Source: a virus
Lineage: Duplodnaviria; Caudoviricetes
Reading direction: 5' to 3' (one strand)
Length of the DNA stretch: 56,536 bases
IMG/VR virus record: IMGVR_UViG_3300036901_000031
Span: 1-56,536 of that record
Shown here: positions 2,169 through 48,502 of the stretch, one piece after another
Layout: each line of letters begins with the position of its first letter
Position numbering within the stretch: position 1 is the first letter of the stretch
Program-made: the position numbers and the translations under genes
Notes under the pieces: model-generated
The model's database searches: none
What the model saw: the letters and a program-made list of their open reading frames with translations, nothing else
Told to the model about the DNA's origin: nothing

Positions 2169-2616
2169 CCACGCAACCCGAGAGGTACCAGAACGTCACG
2201 CTCAAAGAGTCGAATACGGCAACGTGTACGCGATACATCTATTCTCCCTCGTCATAACGAAAGCGGCCATAATCATTCCAGACTTCAATCTCTCGCCACT
2301 TTTCAAGAAATAAAACTTCTTGTTCAATCGTCATCAAACCCGCATGTCTCAATGAGGCAGTCAAACCGGGTGCCCAATATACTGGTAATTTTGGTTTCCT
2401 AAGTGGTCGTTTTGTGGAAAATTTCATTTTGGTAATCATCCCTCATTCACAAATTGTCTATATTGTTCAAAATCGAATTTCTCACTGGTTAGCTGGCTCT
2501 GCAAATTCTCGTTAGTCAAATATAGTTGCTCAATCTCGCGCCGAGCATAGTTAAGTTGAGATTGGAGCCGCTTGATCTCATCTTCCTGTTCTTTACTCAT
2601 TAATTCTCAGCCTCAT

Positions 2617-15300: not shown

Positions 15301-15585
15301 TTATCGGACATATGAATGCTCTCCGCGACACGTAGTAATTTTCTCCCACACATATAGTTTATGTGATACGGCTCCTCGACCACGACATTGAATACCGGCC
15401 TCTTCTACAGCATCTCGCCACGAAGGAAAGTGTTGTCGAACAAGCCATACAGAAGGATGATCTCCTGTTATAACACTCCAGTCTTTAATGAACGGTCCCT
15501 CTCCATATAGTTTATTCCATCTGCGCATAGCATTTAGAATTCCCTCTTTAGACCACTCCTTGCTGTACTGGTTGTGCATTTGCAT
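15301..15585 (-). CDS. homing-endonuclease-associated repeat protein
   Basis: WSKEGIL...P...W......PS...V..HFPSW..AVEEAG pattern. Confidence 0.55.
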   Translation of the reverse strand: MQMHNQYSKEWSKEGILNAMRRWNKLYGEGPFIKDWSVITGDHPSVWLVRQHFPSWRDAVEEAGIQCRGRGAVSHKLYVWEKITTCRGEHSYVR

Positions 15586-18500
15586 ATTCCTTGGCTCGTT
15601 GGAGCAACGTATCTCGTTGATTTAAGGTGGGATCATCAATCACATCATTTGTTAAGTTTCTTAACACTTGACCCACCTGTGGTCCAGGTGGCACACCTAA
15701 TCCAAGTATATCATTTCCATTAATGGATAGGGCAGATTGTTGAGTTGGATCTTGAGCGGATCGAGACTGTTCTACCAATCCTCGCATCCTCTCCACATCC
15801 GTTATCCCGCCATCGGGAGCTATGACACCAATGTCATTTCCCTTGCCGTCAACGTCAGCATTACGAAGAGCGAGAAGATCGTCAGCGTTATCCCCTACTC
15901 GATTGAGAAACTTGCGTGCCCCCTTGGGTGTATTAAATGCTGGCCACATATGCTGCTCGACAAGCGATTGAATTCTGTGAATGCGAGAGTTAGGGTAACG
16001 AAGCTGTCGCAAACGATCCCCAACCATTTGGGCACCCAATGTTTCGTGATCGGCTCCCTGATGATTTGGTCCCTCATAGTAATGGTTGTATCCCGTAACC
16101 GGATCTACCCATGCACTATTGGGCTTACCCACATCATGAAGTAGGGCGGCCAATCTAAGATCGGGATCGGTTGAATTGCGGCTTATATGATCGAGCACAT
16201 TGAGTGAATGATCTCCAAGCGAGAAATTGTGATGAGGATTATTCTGATCAAAATCAAAGTTGTGTGCTAGCTCAGGAAGTAGCTGATGAAGCACTCCTGT
16301 CTCTTGGGCTAGACGAATGGCTCCAGCCGGATTAGGAGACTGAAAAAGCTTATCTAGCTCTCGCCCTGTGATGTCAGGAGACTCGCCACCAAGCTTAGAT
16401 GCGTTCTCTGTCATCTCTCGACGGGTACGCTCATCCGGAACAAGTCCGTGTCGAGAGGATGCTACCAAAGCACGCACTAAACGAGTAGGGTCCTCTTCAA
16501 ACGAAGAGGGATGGGTCGTTCGCAGAGTCTTACGCTCAATGTCCTTAGCTCCACCAAACGGATCAATTAACTGACCGTTATCTAGGTTAACGGCCATTGA
16601 ATTGACCGTGAAGTCTCGACGCTCAAGATCCTTCTTAATTGGCAGCGTATGATCGACTGTAATCTGTCCCTCTCCACGGCGACCACTCTCGTACTTGTCT
16701 TGTCGTGGCAGAGCGATCTCCACTTCCGATCCACCCGTGTTGTATCGGTAGACACCAAACTTCTTACCCGTGAGGTTAACAGAACCCTTGACCTTACTTA
16801 GAGCGTGTTCAACCTCTTCTGGAGGAAGTCCCGCAACCATAAGGTCGATATCCTTAGGCTCTCGCTGAAGTAGAGCATCTCGAACAGCCCCACCTACAAC
16901 ATAGACTTGACCACCGGCCTTCTTAAGGGTTTGGTAGGCACTCCAAGCAGCAGGATCGGTGGTTGCCAAAGTACGGATATATTGACCAACGCTCTGTGAA
17001 GCGGCAACCTTGGTTGTATTTCCTGCGGCATCTCTAAGTTCTACGCTTGTAACCTCCATTTGTGGATGTGAATGATACCATAGATCGAGCATGTGTCGCA
17101 CCGAGTAAGGTTGATCCGTCATATTCTGAATCGAAACCTTTCCTCCCGGAGCATAATATCCCTCTACGATTCCACCAGGAGTAAACCGGCCACTAATCGG
17201 ATGAGTAATATCTGATGTCTTTGTTCCGGGGTGGCCAATTGTGATGTGATCTTGTTGAACATCAAAGATGAAGGGAATCTCGGCCTCGATCATGTCCTTA
17301 GGATCTGAGCCAGCCGAGTAAACCCACTTCTGGCCTTTGACATTAACAAAGCCCAATCGCCGCATCACTCGTTCCCCTCCTTCCGAACCAGCATGAGAGT
17401 AGACGTTTGGGTGATACTCGATTACCTTCTGGGTCATCGTCAATCCAAGTCCTCGTCCAGGGACGGCATGGATCATGATGATCTCGGTCTTGTCACCATC
17501 TGGTCGGACACAAGTGTAGCCTAATAGCTCACCATTATCATAGCCTCCGTAAAAGATTAGGCCGTCATCTCTATCGTATCCCCATAGTTTTGCGTACAAT
17601 TCAAATCCAGGGACGACAGAAGCCTCACGGAAGCTAGCAAGCGGAATTGCTACAGGCTCGGAATTGTGTCGATGTGCTGGAAGCGGATCATCTATTTCTC
17701 CCGGTCGAGGGAAGTGTCCATCCTCGATTGGATCAACATCAGGATGATGGTTCTGAACGTGCAACATATACTCGCCAAACGAGTCTAGAGGAATGTTGCA
17801 AGCGGGACAGCTAAAGTTTGTATCAGGAGGAAGATCTGTTTTCTTCTCGGGTTCCCAATTAGGATCAATACGATTGAAAGTCTCAAGACCCTCTTCGTTC
17901 TTGATCTTATCGTTAAAGTCTGTCTCCGTTCCAGGATACTCGGCTAATTTGTATCCAAAGTCCTTGGCCCAATCCCTAAGTCCCTCGGAGTAATTATCGT
18001 CGGCCAATGATCCCGAGCGTATTTTTGCCACTCCTCCTGCCACGTCAATAATTCCTGCAAACCTCTGTAGGGGTCTTTCGGAAAGAACCAAACCCTTGTT
18101 CCACGAGTAATACATTCGCCGCTTAGGGCCGAAAAGATCTTGTCCTTCGATTCCATCAAATTGCCAGCCGACTTTTTCTCCGTAGTCTGTGAAGATACTT
18201 GCGAGTCCTCTAAGCCCCGTATTAGTTGCAACGGTCCATCTGGCTCGTCCTCCTCGTACAACAAGTAATCCCGTGGCAAGCGGCCCATTATAATCGGCCG
18301 AAACTCGCGCCAAGTTGTGTAACTCCTCGATTGAGTGGATAGGGGAGACGTGTAGTTTACCGTTTGCCCAGAAGTATTTGTACTGTTTGATTTCGTCGTC
18401 ATTTTCAGGTACCCATGGTTCATCGTGAAAGAATTTTTGATTCATGTCCTCTACCGATTGAGGGGTCGAACCAGGATACGGATCGGCTCCCATCAGATCG

Positions 18501-18904
18501 GCAGTCTTATGACCGGCAAGAATATTGTCTGCTCGCTTTGAAAACAGTTTAGCACGCGGAGTCTCCGGTGTGTCGGTTTTCACTCGCAGATCTTTGAAGA
18601 GACTATGAGAGGTTCGCTTATAGAGAACTGGCCCCGGCTCAGATCCATGCGGATGGGCATCGCCAGTAAGATCTACGGCGTATGTCTTGTCAGGAGACAC
18701 CCAGAAATAGTGACCGTTCTTCACGCCAACATAGCCACCCCAATGCTTTGTCAACCACTTGCTCGTGACAAAGCATTGGCCATGAGCCAGATTAGGATGA
18801 CCGGCAAACTTCTCGTGCCTAGTATCATCGCCCCAGGCAGCCTCAGCAGCCTTACGAAAGGTTGTTAGTTTATCTTGGCTGAGAGAGGTTGGATCAAAAG
18901 ACAT
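15548..18904 (-). CDS. cca: multidomain protein: YunG-like / C2H2 zinc finger / GNAT-like / CCA-adding tRNA nucleotidyltransferase with HD domain
   Basis: C-terminal VGGAVRD..DIDL, DLERRDFTVN, SFEEDPTRLVR, HH..LLHDVGKP; N-terminal GQCFVTS..HYFW; CPAC..H..H; central GYTCV..HAVPGRGLG. Start placed at MSFDPT just after TATAAT (ORF is open to 18976). Confidence 0.85.
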   Translation of the reverse strand: MSFDPTSLSQDKLTTFRKAAEAAWGDDTRHEKFAGHPNLAHGQCFVTSKWLTKHWGGYVGVKNGHYFWVSPDKTYAVDLTGDAHPHGSEPGPVLYKRTSHSLFKDLRVKTDTPETPRAKLFSKRADNILAGHKTADLMGADPYPGSTPQSVEDMNQKFFHDEPWVPENDDEIKQYKYFWANGKLHVSPIHSIEELHNLARVSADYNGPLATGLLVVRGGRARWTVATNTGLRGLASIFTDYGEKVGWQFDGIEGQDLFGPKRRMYYSWNKGLVLSERPLQRFAGIIDVAGGVAKIRSGSLADDNYSEGLRDWAKDFGYKLAEYPGTETDFNDKIKNEEGLETFNRIDPNWEPEKKTDLPPDTNFSCPACNIPLDSFGEYMLHVQNHHPDVDPIEDGHFPRPGEIDDPLPAHRHNSEPVAIPLASFREASVVPGFELYAKLWGYDRDDGLIFYGGYDNGELLGYTCVRPDGDKTEIIMIHAVPGRGLGLTMTQKVIEYHPNVYSHAGSEGGERVMRRLGFVNVKGQKWVYSAGSDPKDMIEAEIPFIFDVQQDHITIGHPGTKTSDITHPISGRFTPGGIVEGYYAPGGKVSIQNMTDQPYSVRHMLDLWYHSHPQMEVTSVELRDAAGNTTKVAASQSVGQYIRTLATTDPAAWSAYQTLKKAGGQVYVVGGAVRDALLQREPKDIDLMVAGLPPEEVEHALSKVKGSVNLTGKKFGVYRYNTGGSEVEIALPRQDKYESGRRGEGQITVDHTLPIKKDLERRDFTVNSMAVNLDNGQLIDPFGGAKDIERKTLRTTHPSSFEEDPTRLVRALVASSRHGLVPDERTRREMTENASKLGGESPDITGRELDKLFQSPNPAGAIRLAQETGVLHQLLPELAHNFDFDQNNPHHNFSLGDHSLNVLDHISRNSTDPDLRLAALLHDVGKPNSAWVDPVTGYNHYYEGPNHQGADHETLGAQMVGDRLRQLRYPNSRIHRIQSLVEQHMWPAFNTPKGARKFLNRVGDNADDLLALRNADVDGKGNDIGVIAPDGGITDVERMRGLVEQSRSAQDPTQQSALSINGNDILGLGVPPGPQVGQVLRNLTNDVIDDPTLNQRDTLLQRAKEYANAQPVQQGVV

Positions 18905-18920
18905 ACCATATATTATACGT

Positions 18921-19700
18921 CTAGAATGGCGCGTCTGGATGTATTTGACCGAATGACGACTCGGGAACTCCCTCACTAACTCCTACCGGGGAAGGATTAT
19001 GTGGGTCCATATACGGGTTTTTGAAGGGAACCTCAGCTATTAGGTGCTGTGCCATATTCGACCGAAACGTCTGCACCTTAGGCATCTCACGAACATAAAT
19101 GTCGGCTAAGTTGTTGCGAAAATTAAGTAGAACGAGAATGCCTAGAACTCCCTTTGTGCCGAGAGTAGCTGCGTGCTCATCTTTTCGTGCCTTCTCATAT
19201 ACGTCACCGGGAATCCAACGATGATTTTTAGCATCCATCGAGAGGGTCTTTACCTCAATGCCCCAGTCCTTTGTTGCCCCATCTAGAGGGGACTGACCGG
19301 TTGACCCGCCAGAATGCCACCAGACGATTGGACCGTACCCAGGAAGCTCACCCATATGTTCGACTAGATCCTCTCCGATCTGCCCAATCTCGCCCACCGT
19401 CAACCCAGAAATGGAGGTCCCTCCACGGTACTCGTCGTAGTTGTGTTGAGCCACTTCCTCAGGGACAGCTAGAGAAGGAAGCTCGTGAACTAGGTTATAG
19501 GACTTGTGACAAACGGGACACGTATAGTAGCCACTAGAATCCTCGGCTATCTTGACCTGAGCCTCGGGACTGATCCAAAAGGTACACGGACCCGTACCAC
19601 GATTGTTCTGAGTGTAGCAATGGACGTAGCCCTCTCGCTCAATCAGTTGCTCCGTTGTGGGGTCAGTTGCGTTAATCCCGTCTTGTAACGTCAGAATCAT
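18921..19700 (-). CDS. zinc ribbon + PD-(D/E)xK nuclease-like protein
   Basis: CPVC; GQIGEDLV...PLDG...GIEVKT. Confidence 0.6.
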   Translation of the reverse strand: MILTLQDGINATDPTTEQLIEREGYVHCYTQNNRGTGPCTFWISPEAQVKIAEDSSGYYTCPVCHKSYNLVHELPSLAVPEEVAQHNYDEYRGGTSISGLTVGEIGQIGEDLVEHMGELPGYGPIVWWHSGGSTGQSPLDGATKDWGIEVKTLSMDAKNHRWIPGDVYEKARKDEHAATLGTKGVLGILVLLNFRNNLADIYVREMPKVQTFRSNMAQHLIAEVPFKNPYMDPHNPSPVGVSEGVPESSFGQIHPDAPF

Positions 19701-37802: not shown

Positions 37803-37871
37803 TTGCGATAGGCAGAATCGAACTGCCTCCTACACCGTATGAAAGTGTATGTCAGCCATAGACTTACCGCA
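37803..37871 (-). tRNA. tRNA-Met/Ile2 (CAT), compact
   Basis: ACACT-TTCATAC-GGTGT; T arm GGCAG TTCGATT CTGCC. Confidence 0.7.
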
Positions 37872-37979
37872 TTGGATTTCCCCCTACCGCCTATCCTCGG
37901 TCATTGGGGTACTCAAATGTCGTGAAGTTCACTCTCCCTAATCCGGGGTGCGGAGTGTACGATAGGTGTCACGCTCGGT

Positions 37980-38141
37980 TTAGTGGCGTCGGTTACCTTC
38001 CATCCCTGGTCCGCGAGGCTTTCCCACGCGGAGACGATAGCGAGCGCACTTAATTTTGTTGCGTCCGTACTTTCGGTTCTTGCGTCCCTCCTTCTTCTTT
38101 TTCTTTGGAGGGGTGACAAGACGAACTACTGGTACAGCCAT
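37980..38141 (-). CDS. 53-aa very basic protein
   Basis: AAGGAG SD; MAVPVVRLVTPPKKKKKEGRKNRKYGRNKIKCARYRLRVGKPRGPGMEGNRRH (hand translated; below ORF-track cutoff). Confidence 0.6.
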   Translation of the reverse strand: MAVPVVRLVTPPKKKKKEGRKNRKYGRNKIKCARYRLRVGKPRGPGMEGNRRH

Positions 38142-38163
38142 GGATTTCTCCTTCGTTTAGGGG

Positions 38164-38178
38164 TCATATCCTAAACAT
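38164..38178 (-). other. 4-codon minigene MFRI with perfect SD
   Basis: TAAGGAGGTATTGCC ATG TTT AGG ATA TGA. Confidence 0.45.
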
Positions 38179-38209
38179 GGCAATACCTCCTTAGTTTGTT
38201 GTTGATAAA

Positions 38210-38339: not shown

Positions 38340-38413
38340 AGCTCATTTAGGGAATCGAACCCTATCTATTCCGCTTTACAAGAGCGACGCAGCACCATTT
38401 CTGCATAATGAGC
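38340..38413 (-). tRNA. tRNA-Thr(TGT)
   Basis: Loop CTTGTAA. Confidence 0.85.
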
Positions 38414-38417
38414 GATA

Positions 38418-38894
38418 TTACAGTTTGTAGCCGGGGTTCTGTTTATCCAGGTCAGGAAGCTTATCCTCCCTAAATTAACGATCATCTGTCTCAGGAGATA
38501 GTTAGTCTCCTGGCGGATTCTTGACGAGTTGCCCGCTGCCCTCTACCTGCTATGTCCATAGGTTTCCCCTTAGGATTCGCGTCTTGAGGTTGCATCCTCA
38601 ACGTTCGTATGTGGTCCAAACGCAGCAACAAGAACCGGATCGGTTTTCCATAATGATGAATCCTTTTCCGCTTGCTTTACGAGATACAAAAGAACAAATG
38701 GAAACATTGCTTCCCGTTGTTCTTTTGTCGTGATAGATTTAGCTATCGCTTCAGCCGTTTTATACGACATTGCTGCTCCCACTACTACGTCGCTTATTTA
38801 CTGGGTTGATTAAGCCCATAACCGGATTTCCCCGGCCAGGATGCCCCGAACTTCCTCTACGCATACCTTCTGCGCAGCAATCGTCTAACTGTAA
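38418..38894 (-). ncRNA. rnpB: RNase P RNA
   Basis: P1 TTACAGTT/AACTGTAA; 5' GAGGAAGTTCGGGGC pairs with 3' AACAGAACCCCGGCTAC (P4); AGATGATCG conserved region. Confidence 0.85.
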
Positions 38895-38900
38895 ATTTTA

Positions 38901-38984
38901 AGAATACCCTCCTGCCCGGAGTCGAACCGGGGACGCCACCCCTGGGGGATGCGCTCTGTCCTCTGAGCTACAGGACGGTATTCT
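38901..38984 (-). ncRNA. tRNA-like RNA lacking a canonical anticodon loop
   Basis: Normal D arm (GCTC AGAGGACA GAGC) and T arm (CCCGG TTCGACT CCGGG); CCCCCAGGGG in the anticodon position; extended terminal stem. Confidence 0.6.
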
Positions 38985-46207: not shown

Positions 46208-46292
46208 CGGATAGAACAGGAGTCGAACCTGCAAGGCTGTTATGCTCGCTTCCTTTCCAGGGAAGTCCCGTCACCAATCGGGTTGCCTATCC
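46208..46292 (-). tRNA. tRNA-Ser(GGA)
   Basis: CTTCC-CTGGAAA-GGAAG. Confidence 0.88.
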
Positions 46293-46769
46293 TTTAACCT
46301 CAAAGTCATACTTCATCGGCAAATTAAGTCGATACTTCTTTCCTAGACGATTTAGATGACCAAAAGCAGCCACAGTGTTGTATGTGATCTGAAGATCAAC
46401 CGGACGAGGAAGATCCTTATAGGTTTTAAAGCCTTCGAACGAAGCCTGAACATGAGGATCGTCCTTATCGACAATCTCGATGCCGAGAGCCGTGTAGGAA
46501 TATGGCTTGATCTCGGTGCGGCCTTCATCAATGATGATAGCTGTCTTGAATCCTCGTTCTTTAAGATAGCGCTCAATCACCAGGAGTTGGTCCGCATCCT
46601 CGGCTAGCATAACTAGCTTTGTGTAGTGCTTTCCGTACTCCCAGTGGTCGATCATCTTGGTAGATGAAACCTTATATGCTTCAACAGCAGCATGGGCTAC
46701 CTGAGCAGCCGATTTTCCTGTTGACATCCCCAAATCTCGATTTAGGAACAAATACATGGCAGGTCGCAT
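46287..46769 (-). CDS. pth2: peptidyl-tRNA hydrolase, Pth2 family
   Basis: RDLGMSTGKSAAQVAHA, KLV, IDEGRTEI..TALG. Confidence 0.9.
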   Translation of the reverse strand: MRPAMYLFLNRDLGMSTGKSAAQVAHAAVEAYKVSSTKMIDHWEYGKHYTKLVMLAEDADQLLVIERYLKERGFKTAIIIDEGRTEIKPYSYTALGIEIVDKDDPHVQASFEGFKTYKDLPRPVDLQITYNTVAAFGHLNRLGKKYRLNLPMKYDFEVKG

Positions 46770-48067: not shown

Positions 48068-48100
48068 TCTCCAGTACCCATGCATTGGTGTTGGAGTTAG

Positions 48101-48502
48101 TGGATCTGGTCGGACTTGAACCGACGTTCTCGATACGCTTACTAGGTTACTTATATCAGCTTAGGGGCAGGCTTTAACCCGCCTCCACCAAAGAGTTTAT
48201 ACGATACTCATAAACGGCCCCGCTACCAATCTAGCTTTTATTCTGGTCATTCTAGACGTGCTAGACAACGCTAGAAGACCGACTCTTATTCTGGTTCCAG
48301 GTCAGAGTTGACCCATGCATTGATTTCTATATCAAGGCTAGGAGTGAATCACCAGCGGTGATACCCTCGGGACGAGTCCCGAAAAGGCTTGCTGGAATGT
48401 TCACGAGTGAATCGTCGTCAGTTATTGACTTGTTTGGTTTAAGGTGACCAACCGCTGAATAACACTAATCGCTTCTTATCGAGTCGAATGCCTGTCAGAC
48501 CC
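48101..48502 (-). ncRNA. ssrA: tmRNA
   Basis: 5' GGGTCTGACAGGCATTCGAC; 3' GTCGGTTCAAGTCCGACCAGATCCA with G3:U70; ATAACTG resume context; tag ORF 48327..48419. Confidence 0.9.

Follow-up and report, generated by a model that had tools for sequence, protein, structure and literature searches.

The DNA analyzed here (the window) is the whole 56,536-nucleotide (nt) stretch of the IMG/VR viral contig IMGVR_UViG_3300036901_000031, assigned to Caudoviricetes and estimated by CheckV to be 35% complete. The 56.5-kb window encodes a portal protein, a large terminase, RIIA, a NAMPT with a NUDIX protein, a PTH2 peptidyl-tRNA hydrolase, and a CCA-adding enzyme domain. ARAGORN predicts 40 transfer RNA (tRNA) genes and a transfer-messenger RNA (tmRNA) gene, all on the minus strand, between positions 37803 and 51507. 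Inside this array, between tRNA-Trp(CCA) and tRNA-Thr(UGU), lies an RNA (Table 1) which, judged from its sequence, is a highly diverged homologue of bacterial ribonuclease P (RNase P) RNA. An earlier reading of the letters alone (the sequence-only reading) had placed a phage-encoded RNase P RNA here, and the proposal is borne out by a covariance-model match, by homologues at the same position in related contigs, and by compensatory changes that occur in all core helices, P4 among them. Its length of 477 nt and its divergence from GAGGAAAGUCC are also as claimed.

The sequence-only reading had suggested a covariance-model check. Using cmscan with permissive filters on positions 38380-38930, it was found that the RNA matches the class B model RNaseP_bact_b from end to end (model positions 1-365 of 365; window 38423-38892, minus strand) with 38.5 bits and an E-value of 4.1e-9, which applies to this 551-base search; the match is thus significant, though under the Rfam gathering cut-off. 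Folding of the RNA gave a minimum free energy z-score of -5.8, and none of 100 shuffled sequences folds as well. The complementary P1 ends and the two P4 strands named at the outset were confirmed: UUACAGUU and AACUGUAA form 8 contiguous pairs, and GAGGAAGUUCGGGGC and AACAGAACCCCGGCUAC lie on the minus strand at RNA positions 38-52 and 452-468, respectively (RNA position n is window position 38895-n). Some observations weigh against the identification. The score of 38.5 bits is far below the class B cut-off of 97, and an Rfam scan of the whole window at default gathering thresholds reported 31 tRNAs and the tmRNA and no RNase P RNA, so that the RNA escapes standard annotation. The second pair of P4 is G-C in the window, as opposed to A-U in the canonical motif.

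Relatives were reached in several ways. An adjacent open reading frame (ORF) of 223 amino acids (aa) led to L022, from a 160-kb contig (80% protein identity), and to L023 (41%); an invariant 16-mer led to L031 among viral contigs; and a matching 19-mer led to L072 and L073 among metagenome contigs. In nhmmer comparisons, the window RNA matches the RNAs of L072 (E 1e-69, 77% identity), L022 (E 1e-23), and L031 (E 2e-11), and the RNA of L073 is identical to that of L031. Against the class A model, L031, L022, and L023 score 63.4, 39.2, and 25.4 bits from end to end, all under the cut-off of 100. The order tRNA-Arg(UCG), tRNA-Gly(GCC), the RNA, tRNA-Thr(UGU), tRNA-Gly(UCC), and further on tRNA-Met is common to the window, L022, and L031.

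Genes for RNase P RNA normally belong to cells, and one may suspect that a bacterial rnpB came onto the contig through mis-assembly or very recent capture from a host. Nothing specific points to this. The position between phage tRNA genes is conserved in three contigs, one of which is 100% complete at 160 kb, and the window itself encodes a portal protein, a terminase, and RIIA. Moreover, no rnpB among representative genomes of 185,579 species contains the exact 20-mer spanning P4 and P5; two bacterial loci having this 20-mer showed no RNase P match and were rejected as chance. An origin of this kind is therefore scarcely credible.

The catalytic half of the RNA can be followed helix by helix. 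In an alignment of only four homologues, from which the structure itself was derived (a limit that weakens the covariation), 80 pairs in 17 helices were scored with P4 written as a pseudoknot; standard pairs fill 95.9% of the cells, and changes on both sides are seen in 26 pairs. Shifting the 3′ partners by 1-3 columns lowers these values to 32-42% and 1-4 pairs, and none of 500 shuffles reaches any of the observed measures. P1, P2, P3, P5, and P15 are present in the canonical order, and the helices other than P1 are 96-100% paired. P1 is kept with changed bases in L022 (8 of 10 end positions) and L031 (9 of 10). All eight P4 pairs are standard in all four homologues, five of them change on both sides, and the bulged U occupies the same column throughout. 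The single-stranded AGAGGAA, ACAGAA, the GCAA of J5/15, the GGU before the 3′ strand of P15, and UGAGA.AGAUGA of J18/2 are invariant across the four. The GGU is located at RNA 348-350 (window 38545-38547), just 5′ of the P15 3′ strand, and its region aligns with the class A consensus CGGGUAggcc in the alignment of L031. The P4 pairing, P1, and the invariant single-stranded core thus indicate that the catalytic half is under strong constraint.

Hairpin A, following the 5′ strand of P5, has an invariant GAAA tetraloop and seven pairs, three of them with changes on both sides, and all four pairs of hairpin B change on both sides. P16-like and P17-like pairs are present, one of which covaries. The second hairpin after P15 has a GNRA loop in L022 and L031, not in the window RNA. 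The P2-P4 junction is 35 nt in the window, 20 in L072, 15 in L022, and 6 in L031, which has no hairpin there. No P13/P14 and no partner for P6 were found by inspection, made without a dedicated search.

Does the RNA cleave anything? A catalytically dead relic, or a decoy that modulates or stops tRNA processing in the host by binding host RnpA or pre-tRNAs, would explain the non-canonical specificity domain, the score well under the family cut-off, and a P4 that is off consensus at several positions. Yet every change in P4 is compensated, the bulged U and its invariant flanks are kept across diverged phages, and the GGU and J5/15, predicted to contact the substrate, are invariant; a decoy would not need the whole active-site architecture. 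According to an excerpt of PMC5839562, the catalytic domain of the Escherichia coli RNase P RNA is active alone at reduced efficiency. I therefore consider the relic or decoy unlikely.

To which class does the RNA belong? It mixes traits of class A and class B, which explains why class B is the best-scoring model for the window RNA and class A for its relatives. With class A (RF00010; E. coli M1 RNA, rnpB) it shares P1-P5, the P4 pseudoknot with the bulged U, GAGGAA/ACAGAA, the GCAA of J5/15, J18/2, and a P15 internal loop with GGU, and the closest homologues score best against that class. It differs from class A in being phage-borne, in scoring under the cut-off, in lacking a recognizable P7-P14 set and a canonical double T-loop, in showing on inspection no recognizable P13/P14 or P6, and in having additional hairpins behind P5, behind P15, and within the P2-P4 junction. 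With class B (RF00011; Bacillus subtilis type), the best Rfam match of the window, it shares a J18/2 reading AGAcAGAUG as in the class B consensus, and hairpins that may correspond to the class B elements stand at the P5.1 (GAAA loop), P15.1, and P19 positions. On the other hand, it reaches 38.5 of the 97 bits, has a class A-like P15 extension, and has no P10.1 that could be identified in the window RNA, and its relatives obtain higher scores with the class A model.

The canonical specificity domain is unrecognizable; as far as sequence comparison tells, it is rebuilt around a small internal loop and a freely evolving arm, and this also counts against assigning ordinary RNase P function to the RNA. 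In the Rfam alignment of L031, the class A P7-P14 part is wholly deleted or replaced by unaligned insertions. What follows P5 instead is a GAAA-tetraloop hairpin, a second hairpin, a long stem, and a conserved core of the form NNGG-GAG-[arm]-CG-Y-U-N-R-N-A-CCNN. A pattern search found this core in 8 of 10 tested phage RNase P-like RNAs. It occurs in L031 with one G·A pair, and the near-canonical L005 is without it. The second outer pair of the core covaries as U-A, A-U, or C-G.

The published RNase P module on which the tRNA elbow docks consists of two T-loops, arranged head to tail, whose cores read AG..A and UG..A (PMC3664808). The canonical J11/12-J12/13 double T-loop with P7-P11 was not found in the phage RNA, and GAG/CGYUNRNA mismatches the cores described there. 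The idea that the 3′ loop of the specificity core is a T-loop for the tRNA elbow was dropped because it lacks the AG..A and UG..A cores. The mismatch means that efficient recognition of tRNA is not assured, a further point on the negative side. The closest known parallel is the archaeal type T RNA, in which, according to an excerpt of PMC3579882, the catalytic domain is conserved and the specificity domain drastically reduced; that RNA was also missed by the standard Rfam model and needed a covariance model of its own. In contrast to the phage RNA, type T RNA is archaeal, works with several proteins, and has a P10-P12 stem that is ended by a small loop or missing (PMC3579882, same excerpt). 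The phage RNA keeps the conserved core loop and an arm that is hugely expanded in the window.

The arm varies in length across the family (6, 9, 13, 28, 48, and 108 nt, 153 nt in the window, and 163 nt in L072; it is 6 nt in L022, whose RNA measures 321 nt, and about 45 nt in L031). From these lengths, the window insertion is the long end of a hypervariable P12-like arm. The sequence-only reading had expected insertions in the specificity domain; a single arm is indeed hugely expanded, while the domain is for the most part reduced and rebuilt, with no canonical P7-P14 set. Terminator-like sites in the arm are at the chance level (4 versus 3.8 expected).

The arm of the window contains an ORF of 66 codons (Table 1). 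L072 shares both the AUG and the open frame, which there runs for 60 codons. Between the two copies, 61 substitutions and an in-frame 9-nt indel leave the frame intact, and a 1-nt indel is located immediately before the AUG. Identical residues occupy 34 of 57 aligned codons, the differences at codon positions 1, 2, and 3 being 19, 12, and 30. In permutations over codons 2-43, none of 5000 trials reaches the observed identity, and the third-position excess (27 of 56 differences) is reached by 0.08% of them. The dN/dS is 0.29 over the whole ORF and 0.16 over codons 2-43, as compared with 1.06 and 1.77 in the control frames. An AlphaFold (AF2) model built from two sequences is a small helical bundle with a pLDDT of 77.9. 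The protein is acidic by a count from its sequences and for this reason is unlikely to be a stand-in for RnpA.

Several results speak against a coding gene. Searches in protein sets of 5.8 billion and 1.84 billion sequences, Pfam, and PHROGs returned only the L072 copy; PDB and BFVD gave no fold match; the ESM atlas gave no match and a low recognition value. L072 provides the one independent comparison, and the amino acid identity is inflated by the 3′ third of the ORF, where it coincides with sequence constrained as RNA. In addition, no free-standing copy of the ORF was found in the records of the five relatives. A 3445-aa protein with E 3.5e-7 in the protein-set search was disregarded, as no matched stretch was given, and the single locus (L074) from a scan with an arm 17-mer was rejected as chance, being an ordinary gene sharing only a 7-residue stretch.

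Is the long arm, then, only a fast-evolving RNA expansion of a P12-like helix with a fortuitous, untranslated ORF? Expansions of P12-like helices are seen in many bacterial RNase P RNAs. The hypervariable length of 6-163 nt agrees with such an expansion, as does the strong folding of the window arm on its own (z -5.3), and the lack of any homologue, family, or fold match for the ORF, its constrained 3′ third, and the single pairwise comparison all fit. However, the arm of L072 reaches a z-score of only -1.95 with a different topology, and the consensus fold of the two is weak (-19.9 kcal/mol, 2 of 33 pairs compensatory); the helices of the arm are not kept between the two copies, while the frame is, from the same AUG, with the third-position excess and the low dN/dS described above. 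A purely structural expansion has a substantial chance of being right, a little short of even. A real coding gene, as suggested by the pattern of substitutions, seems to me slightly favored.

A further step is more doubtful. It is possible that the gene of the RNase P ribozyme doubles as a messenger and that the conserved GGGAG of the core is the ribosome-binding site of the nested small protein gene, an idea that I put forward tentatively. Since the frame runs through the specificity stem into P5, translation and folding of the ribozyme would be impossible on the same molecule.

Genes nested in structured RNAs have known counterparts. Group I and group II intron ribozymes have proteins encoded in peripheral loops, and tmRNA is a dual-function RNA. 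The likeness lies in an ORF placed in a peripheral, dispensable part of a structured RNA that is catalytic or tRNA-like; in contrast to intron-encoded proteins, the product of the window ORF shows no resemblance to homing endonucleases or maturases. An ORF inside an RNase P RNA is not known to me. A literature search, which was targeted at phage-encoded RNase P RNAs rather than coding ones, returned no protein-coding RNase P RNA.

Table 1. Positions of the RNase P RNA homologue, its elements, and associated features in the window (RNA numbering runs along the minus strand)
Feature	Window positions	Strand	Basis or remark
RNase P RNA homologue, 477 nt	38418..38894	-	full-length RNaseP_bact_b match; nhmmer; 80-pair alignment
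tRNA-Trp(CCA), upstream	38906..38978	-	11-nt spacer to the RNase P RNA homologue
tRNA-Thr(UGU), downstream	38340..38413	-	4-nt spacer; same neighbour in L022 and L031
P1 5′ strand, RNA 1-8	38887..38894	-	8 contiguous pairs with RNA 470-477
P2 5′ strand (RNA 10-16) and P3 hairpin (RNA 18-38)	38857..38885	-	7 pairs each; P3: 3 with both-side changes
J3/4 and P4 5′ strand GAGGAAGUUCGGGG, RNA 38-51, bulged U46	38844..38857	-	AGAGGAA invariant
P5 5′ strand (RNA 52-57), hairpin A (58-75), hairpin B (77-93)	38802..38843	-	alignment
Rebuilt specificity core: outer helix GUGG/CCAC, GAG, variable arm, CGUUUGGA; RNA 113-284	38611..38782	-	pattern search
Hypervariable P12-like arm, 153 nt, RNA 120-272	38623..38775	-	length comparison
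Candidate ORF of 66 codons (positions include the stop), AUG at RNA 125	38570..38770	- (RNA strand)	GGGAG 5 nt upstream
Stretch covered by RNA-library contigs, RNA 150-313	38582..38745		three peat metatranscriptome runs
P5 3′ strand, J5/15 GCAA, P15 with P16/P17-like extension	38540..38598	-	alignment
Two hairpins after P15 (RNA 359-382, 383-403), J18/2 UGAGACAGAUGA, P2 3′ strand (RNA 412-418)	38477..38539	-	
Hairpin in P2-P4 junction (P19 position)	38443..38476	-	
ACAGAA and P4 3′ strand, RNA 453-466	38429..38442	-	alignment
P1 3′ strand, RNA 470-477	38418..38425	-	pairs with RNA 1-8
1142-aa ORF with CCA-adding enzyme domain, residues ~690-1126	15548..18976	-	PHROG tRNA nucleotidyltransferase, E 9e-60

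RNA libraries also contain this sequence. Part of the RNA is covered by contigs from three peat metatranscriptome runs, whose studies possibly come from one campaign: X7 covers 38582-38745 at a word depth of 274, X10 38618-38743 at 148, and X8 38582-38721 at 3.6. They have no mismatches and carry adapter sequence at their ends, and the depths of the flanks are 0-35. This fits an abundant stable RNA. To be set against it, such contigs show neither strand, RNA ends, nor transcription, and RNA libraries can contain DNA. RNA 1-149 and 314-477 are uncovered, which is uninformative since contigs drop sequence. The tRNA-free segment 38100-38246, downstream of tRNA-Gly(UCC), is also covered (X7 at a depth of 34.5, X10 at 9.9). 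A 338-nt gap at 37872-38209, between tRNA-Gly and tRNA-Met, may hold another RNA.

The sequence-only reading held that the RNA would either depend on the RnpA of the host or act protein-free. In agreement with this, no match to RnpA (PF00825) was found in the window or in any of five relatives that are 92-100% complete and include the closest one. Other parts of a tRNA-maturation pathway are encoded. The 1142-aa ORF has the Pfam PolyA_pol head, RNA-binding, and HD domains, and for its N-terminal ~680 residues neither PHROG nor Pfam gave a match. A PTH2-type peptidyl-tRNA hydrolase gene lies inside the tRNA array (46287-46769, minus strand; Pfam E 4e-23). By a crude check of the ends, CCA is encoded by only 2 of the 40 tRNA genes. 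The CCA-adding enzyme, a putative ribozyme with a GGU predicted to pair with CCA, the tmRNA, and PTH2 together look like a self-supplied tRNA-maturation kit.

It had also been proposed that the RNA may suit atypical phage tRNAs with short D arms. A ribozyme specially adapted to tRNAs that host RNase P handles poorly would agree with the rebuilt substrate-reading domain, and the 9 of 40 ARAGORN tRNAs that Rfam does not report at the gathering score (it reports 31) suggest that some are unusual. Nevertheless, the T arms are canonical in the Rfam alignments displayed, the same core occurs in phages with different tRNA sets, and no link between the RNA and odd tRNAs was found. The proposed fit is thus not supported, and such a special adaptation has a small probability.

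As observations on the array itself, the tRNA set between 37803 and 51507 includes tRNA-Ile genes with anticodons AAU and UAU, two tRNA-Trp genes, and three tRNA-Met-like genes. For the window tmRNA (48100-48502, minus strand), ARAGORN gives a tag of 30 residues ending in ...AGDSLLALI. The tmRNA of L022 (1454-1852) is read with the short tag AGDSLLALV, so the real tag in the window is probably the last 9 residues. L022 also has a sub-threshold match to the manA RNA motif inside its tRNA array (2381-2614, plus strand; 40.2 bits, cut-off 55.2, E 5e-7).

Taken together, I regard it as probable that the window encodes a phage-borne bacterial-type RNase P ribozyme which is a fixed member of the tRNA array and cleaves the phage pre-tRNAs. 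The ribozyme would be derived from the bacterial type and retained as a fixed part of the array. Between 37000 and 41000, no sigma-70-like promoter was found, versus 4.0 expected by chance; as no promoter of its own was detected, the RNA is likely co-transcribed with the array, most likely as part of a long tRNA precursor. Because it is hemmed in by tRNAs, I infer that it is excised by the reactions that free its neighbors: 3′ processing of tRNA-Trp 11 nt upstream would release one end, and RNase P cleavage at tRNA-Thr 4 nt downstream the other.

Once released, the RNA would fold into a catalytic domain of P1-P5, P15 with the GGU pairing to the 3′-CCA of tRNA, J18/2, and the P4 pseudoknot with its bulged U. 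From these sequence features, I infer that it is catalytic and may cleave the 5′ leaders of about 40 phage pre-tRNAs and the tmRNA, probably with host RnpA. As these phages encode no RnpA, the RNA would use the protein of the host or act alone. The host RNase P would be supplemented or replaced during infection. Recognition of the tRNA elbow would probably be altered or weakened because the substrate-reading half is rebuilt around a small internal loop and an arm. In this lineage, the arm has expanded to ~153 nt and is likely to harbor a gene whose product, an acidic helical protein of 60-66 residues, would then be translated.

How widespread are such RNAs in phages? A 16-mer across J3/4 and P4 was found at 21 viral-contig loci, and in 10 of them the 3′ strand of P4 follows 200-794 nt downstream on the same strand. 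Seven of the 10, one per distinct type, were scanned with Rfam. Class A matches adjoining tRNAs or tmRNAs were found in five, two of them over the cut-off (L005 with 191 bits and L010 with 124); at E <=0.01, no RNase P match was obtained for L008 or L015. Without such a match, L008:3245-3522 and L015:4899-5249 (both on the minus strand) have both P4 strands and the conserved specificity core; L008 may be a near-minimal form because its P4 strands are only ~200 nt apart. In summary, RNase P-like RNAs lie inside large-phage tRNA arrays in the viral contigs L005, L010, L012, L009, L020, L015, L008, and L002, and the GAGGAAGUUCGGGGC variant of P4 and the GG-GAG/CGYUNRNA-CC core are common to many of these viral RNAs. 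Among the phage RNAs examined, that of the window is the longest, the partial relative L072 aside, and the lineage of the window and L072 is the only one with a conserved ORF in the arm.

Each scan of viral contigs with a 16-mer yields some 21 stretches, most of them chance matches: GGATGCAACCTCAAGA leads to two real loci, L026 and L031, and TGAGACAGATGATCGT to L026 alone. From the nine loci of the metagenome 19-mer scan, L067 and L071 were rejected as GC-rich palindromes without RNase P features, and the remaining five were rejected for lack of similarity. A blastn search of 50,697 deposited phage records with the window RNA and the canonical L005 RNA gave no match.

A side observation concerns L010. 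On its minus strand (1500-2400), the 5′ portion of an RNase P RNA (P1 to the P4 5′ strand, near 2338) is duplicated ~450 nt from the complete above-threshold RNA (1862-1515), and L011 has the same arrangement. The ~450-nt stretch, read in frame by eye, contains a CxxC...CANCH (HNH-like) motif. Judging from this motif, it may represent an insertion of the homing-endonuclease type, next to the ribozyme gene or inside it.

A catalytic RNase P RNA had been called rare in phages. Consistent with this, no paper on phage-encoded RNase P RNA was found in the literature, where supplementary tables of surveys, which lay outside the search, may list hits; on the other hand, such RNAs recur in IMG/VR contigs. 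Phage RNase P RNA is recurrent in large phages and apparently undescribed. Since they are invisible to default Rfam annotation, these RNAs are probably under-counted. What this case contributes is the family-wide specificity core, the longest arm, and the probable nested gene.

RNase P RNA counts as a universal housekeeping ribozyme of cells. A copy carried by a virus adds to the translation components of large phages, which include tRNAs, tmRNA, and the CCA-adding enzyme, and implies that in the course of infection the 5′ maturation of tRNA can turn into a bottleneck or be contested. The phage RNAs are natural experiments in which the substrate-reading half is stripped or rebuilt and the catalytic half is intact. 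If the nested ORF is real, this RNase P RNA would also encode a protein and would be the first one to do so, possibly with a switch or a division of labor between processing tRNA and making a small acidic protein.

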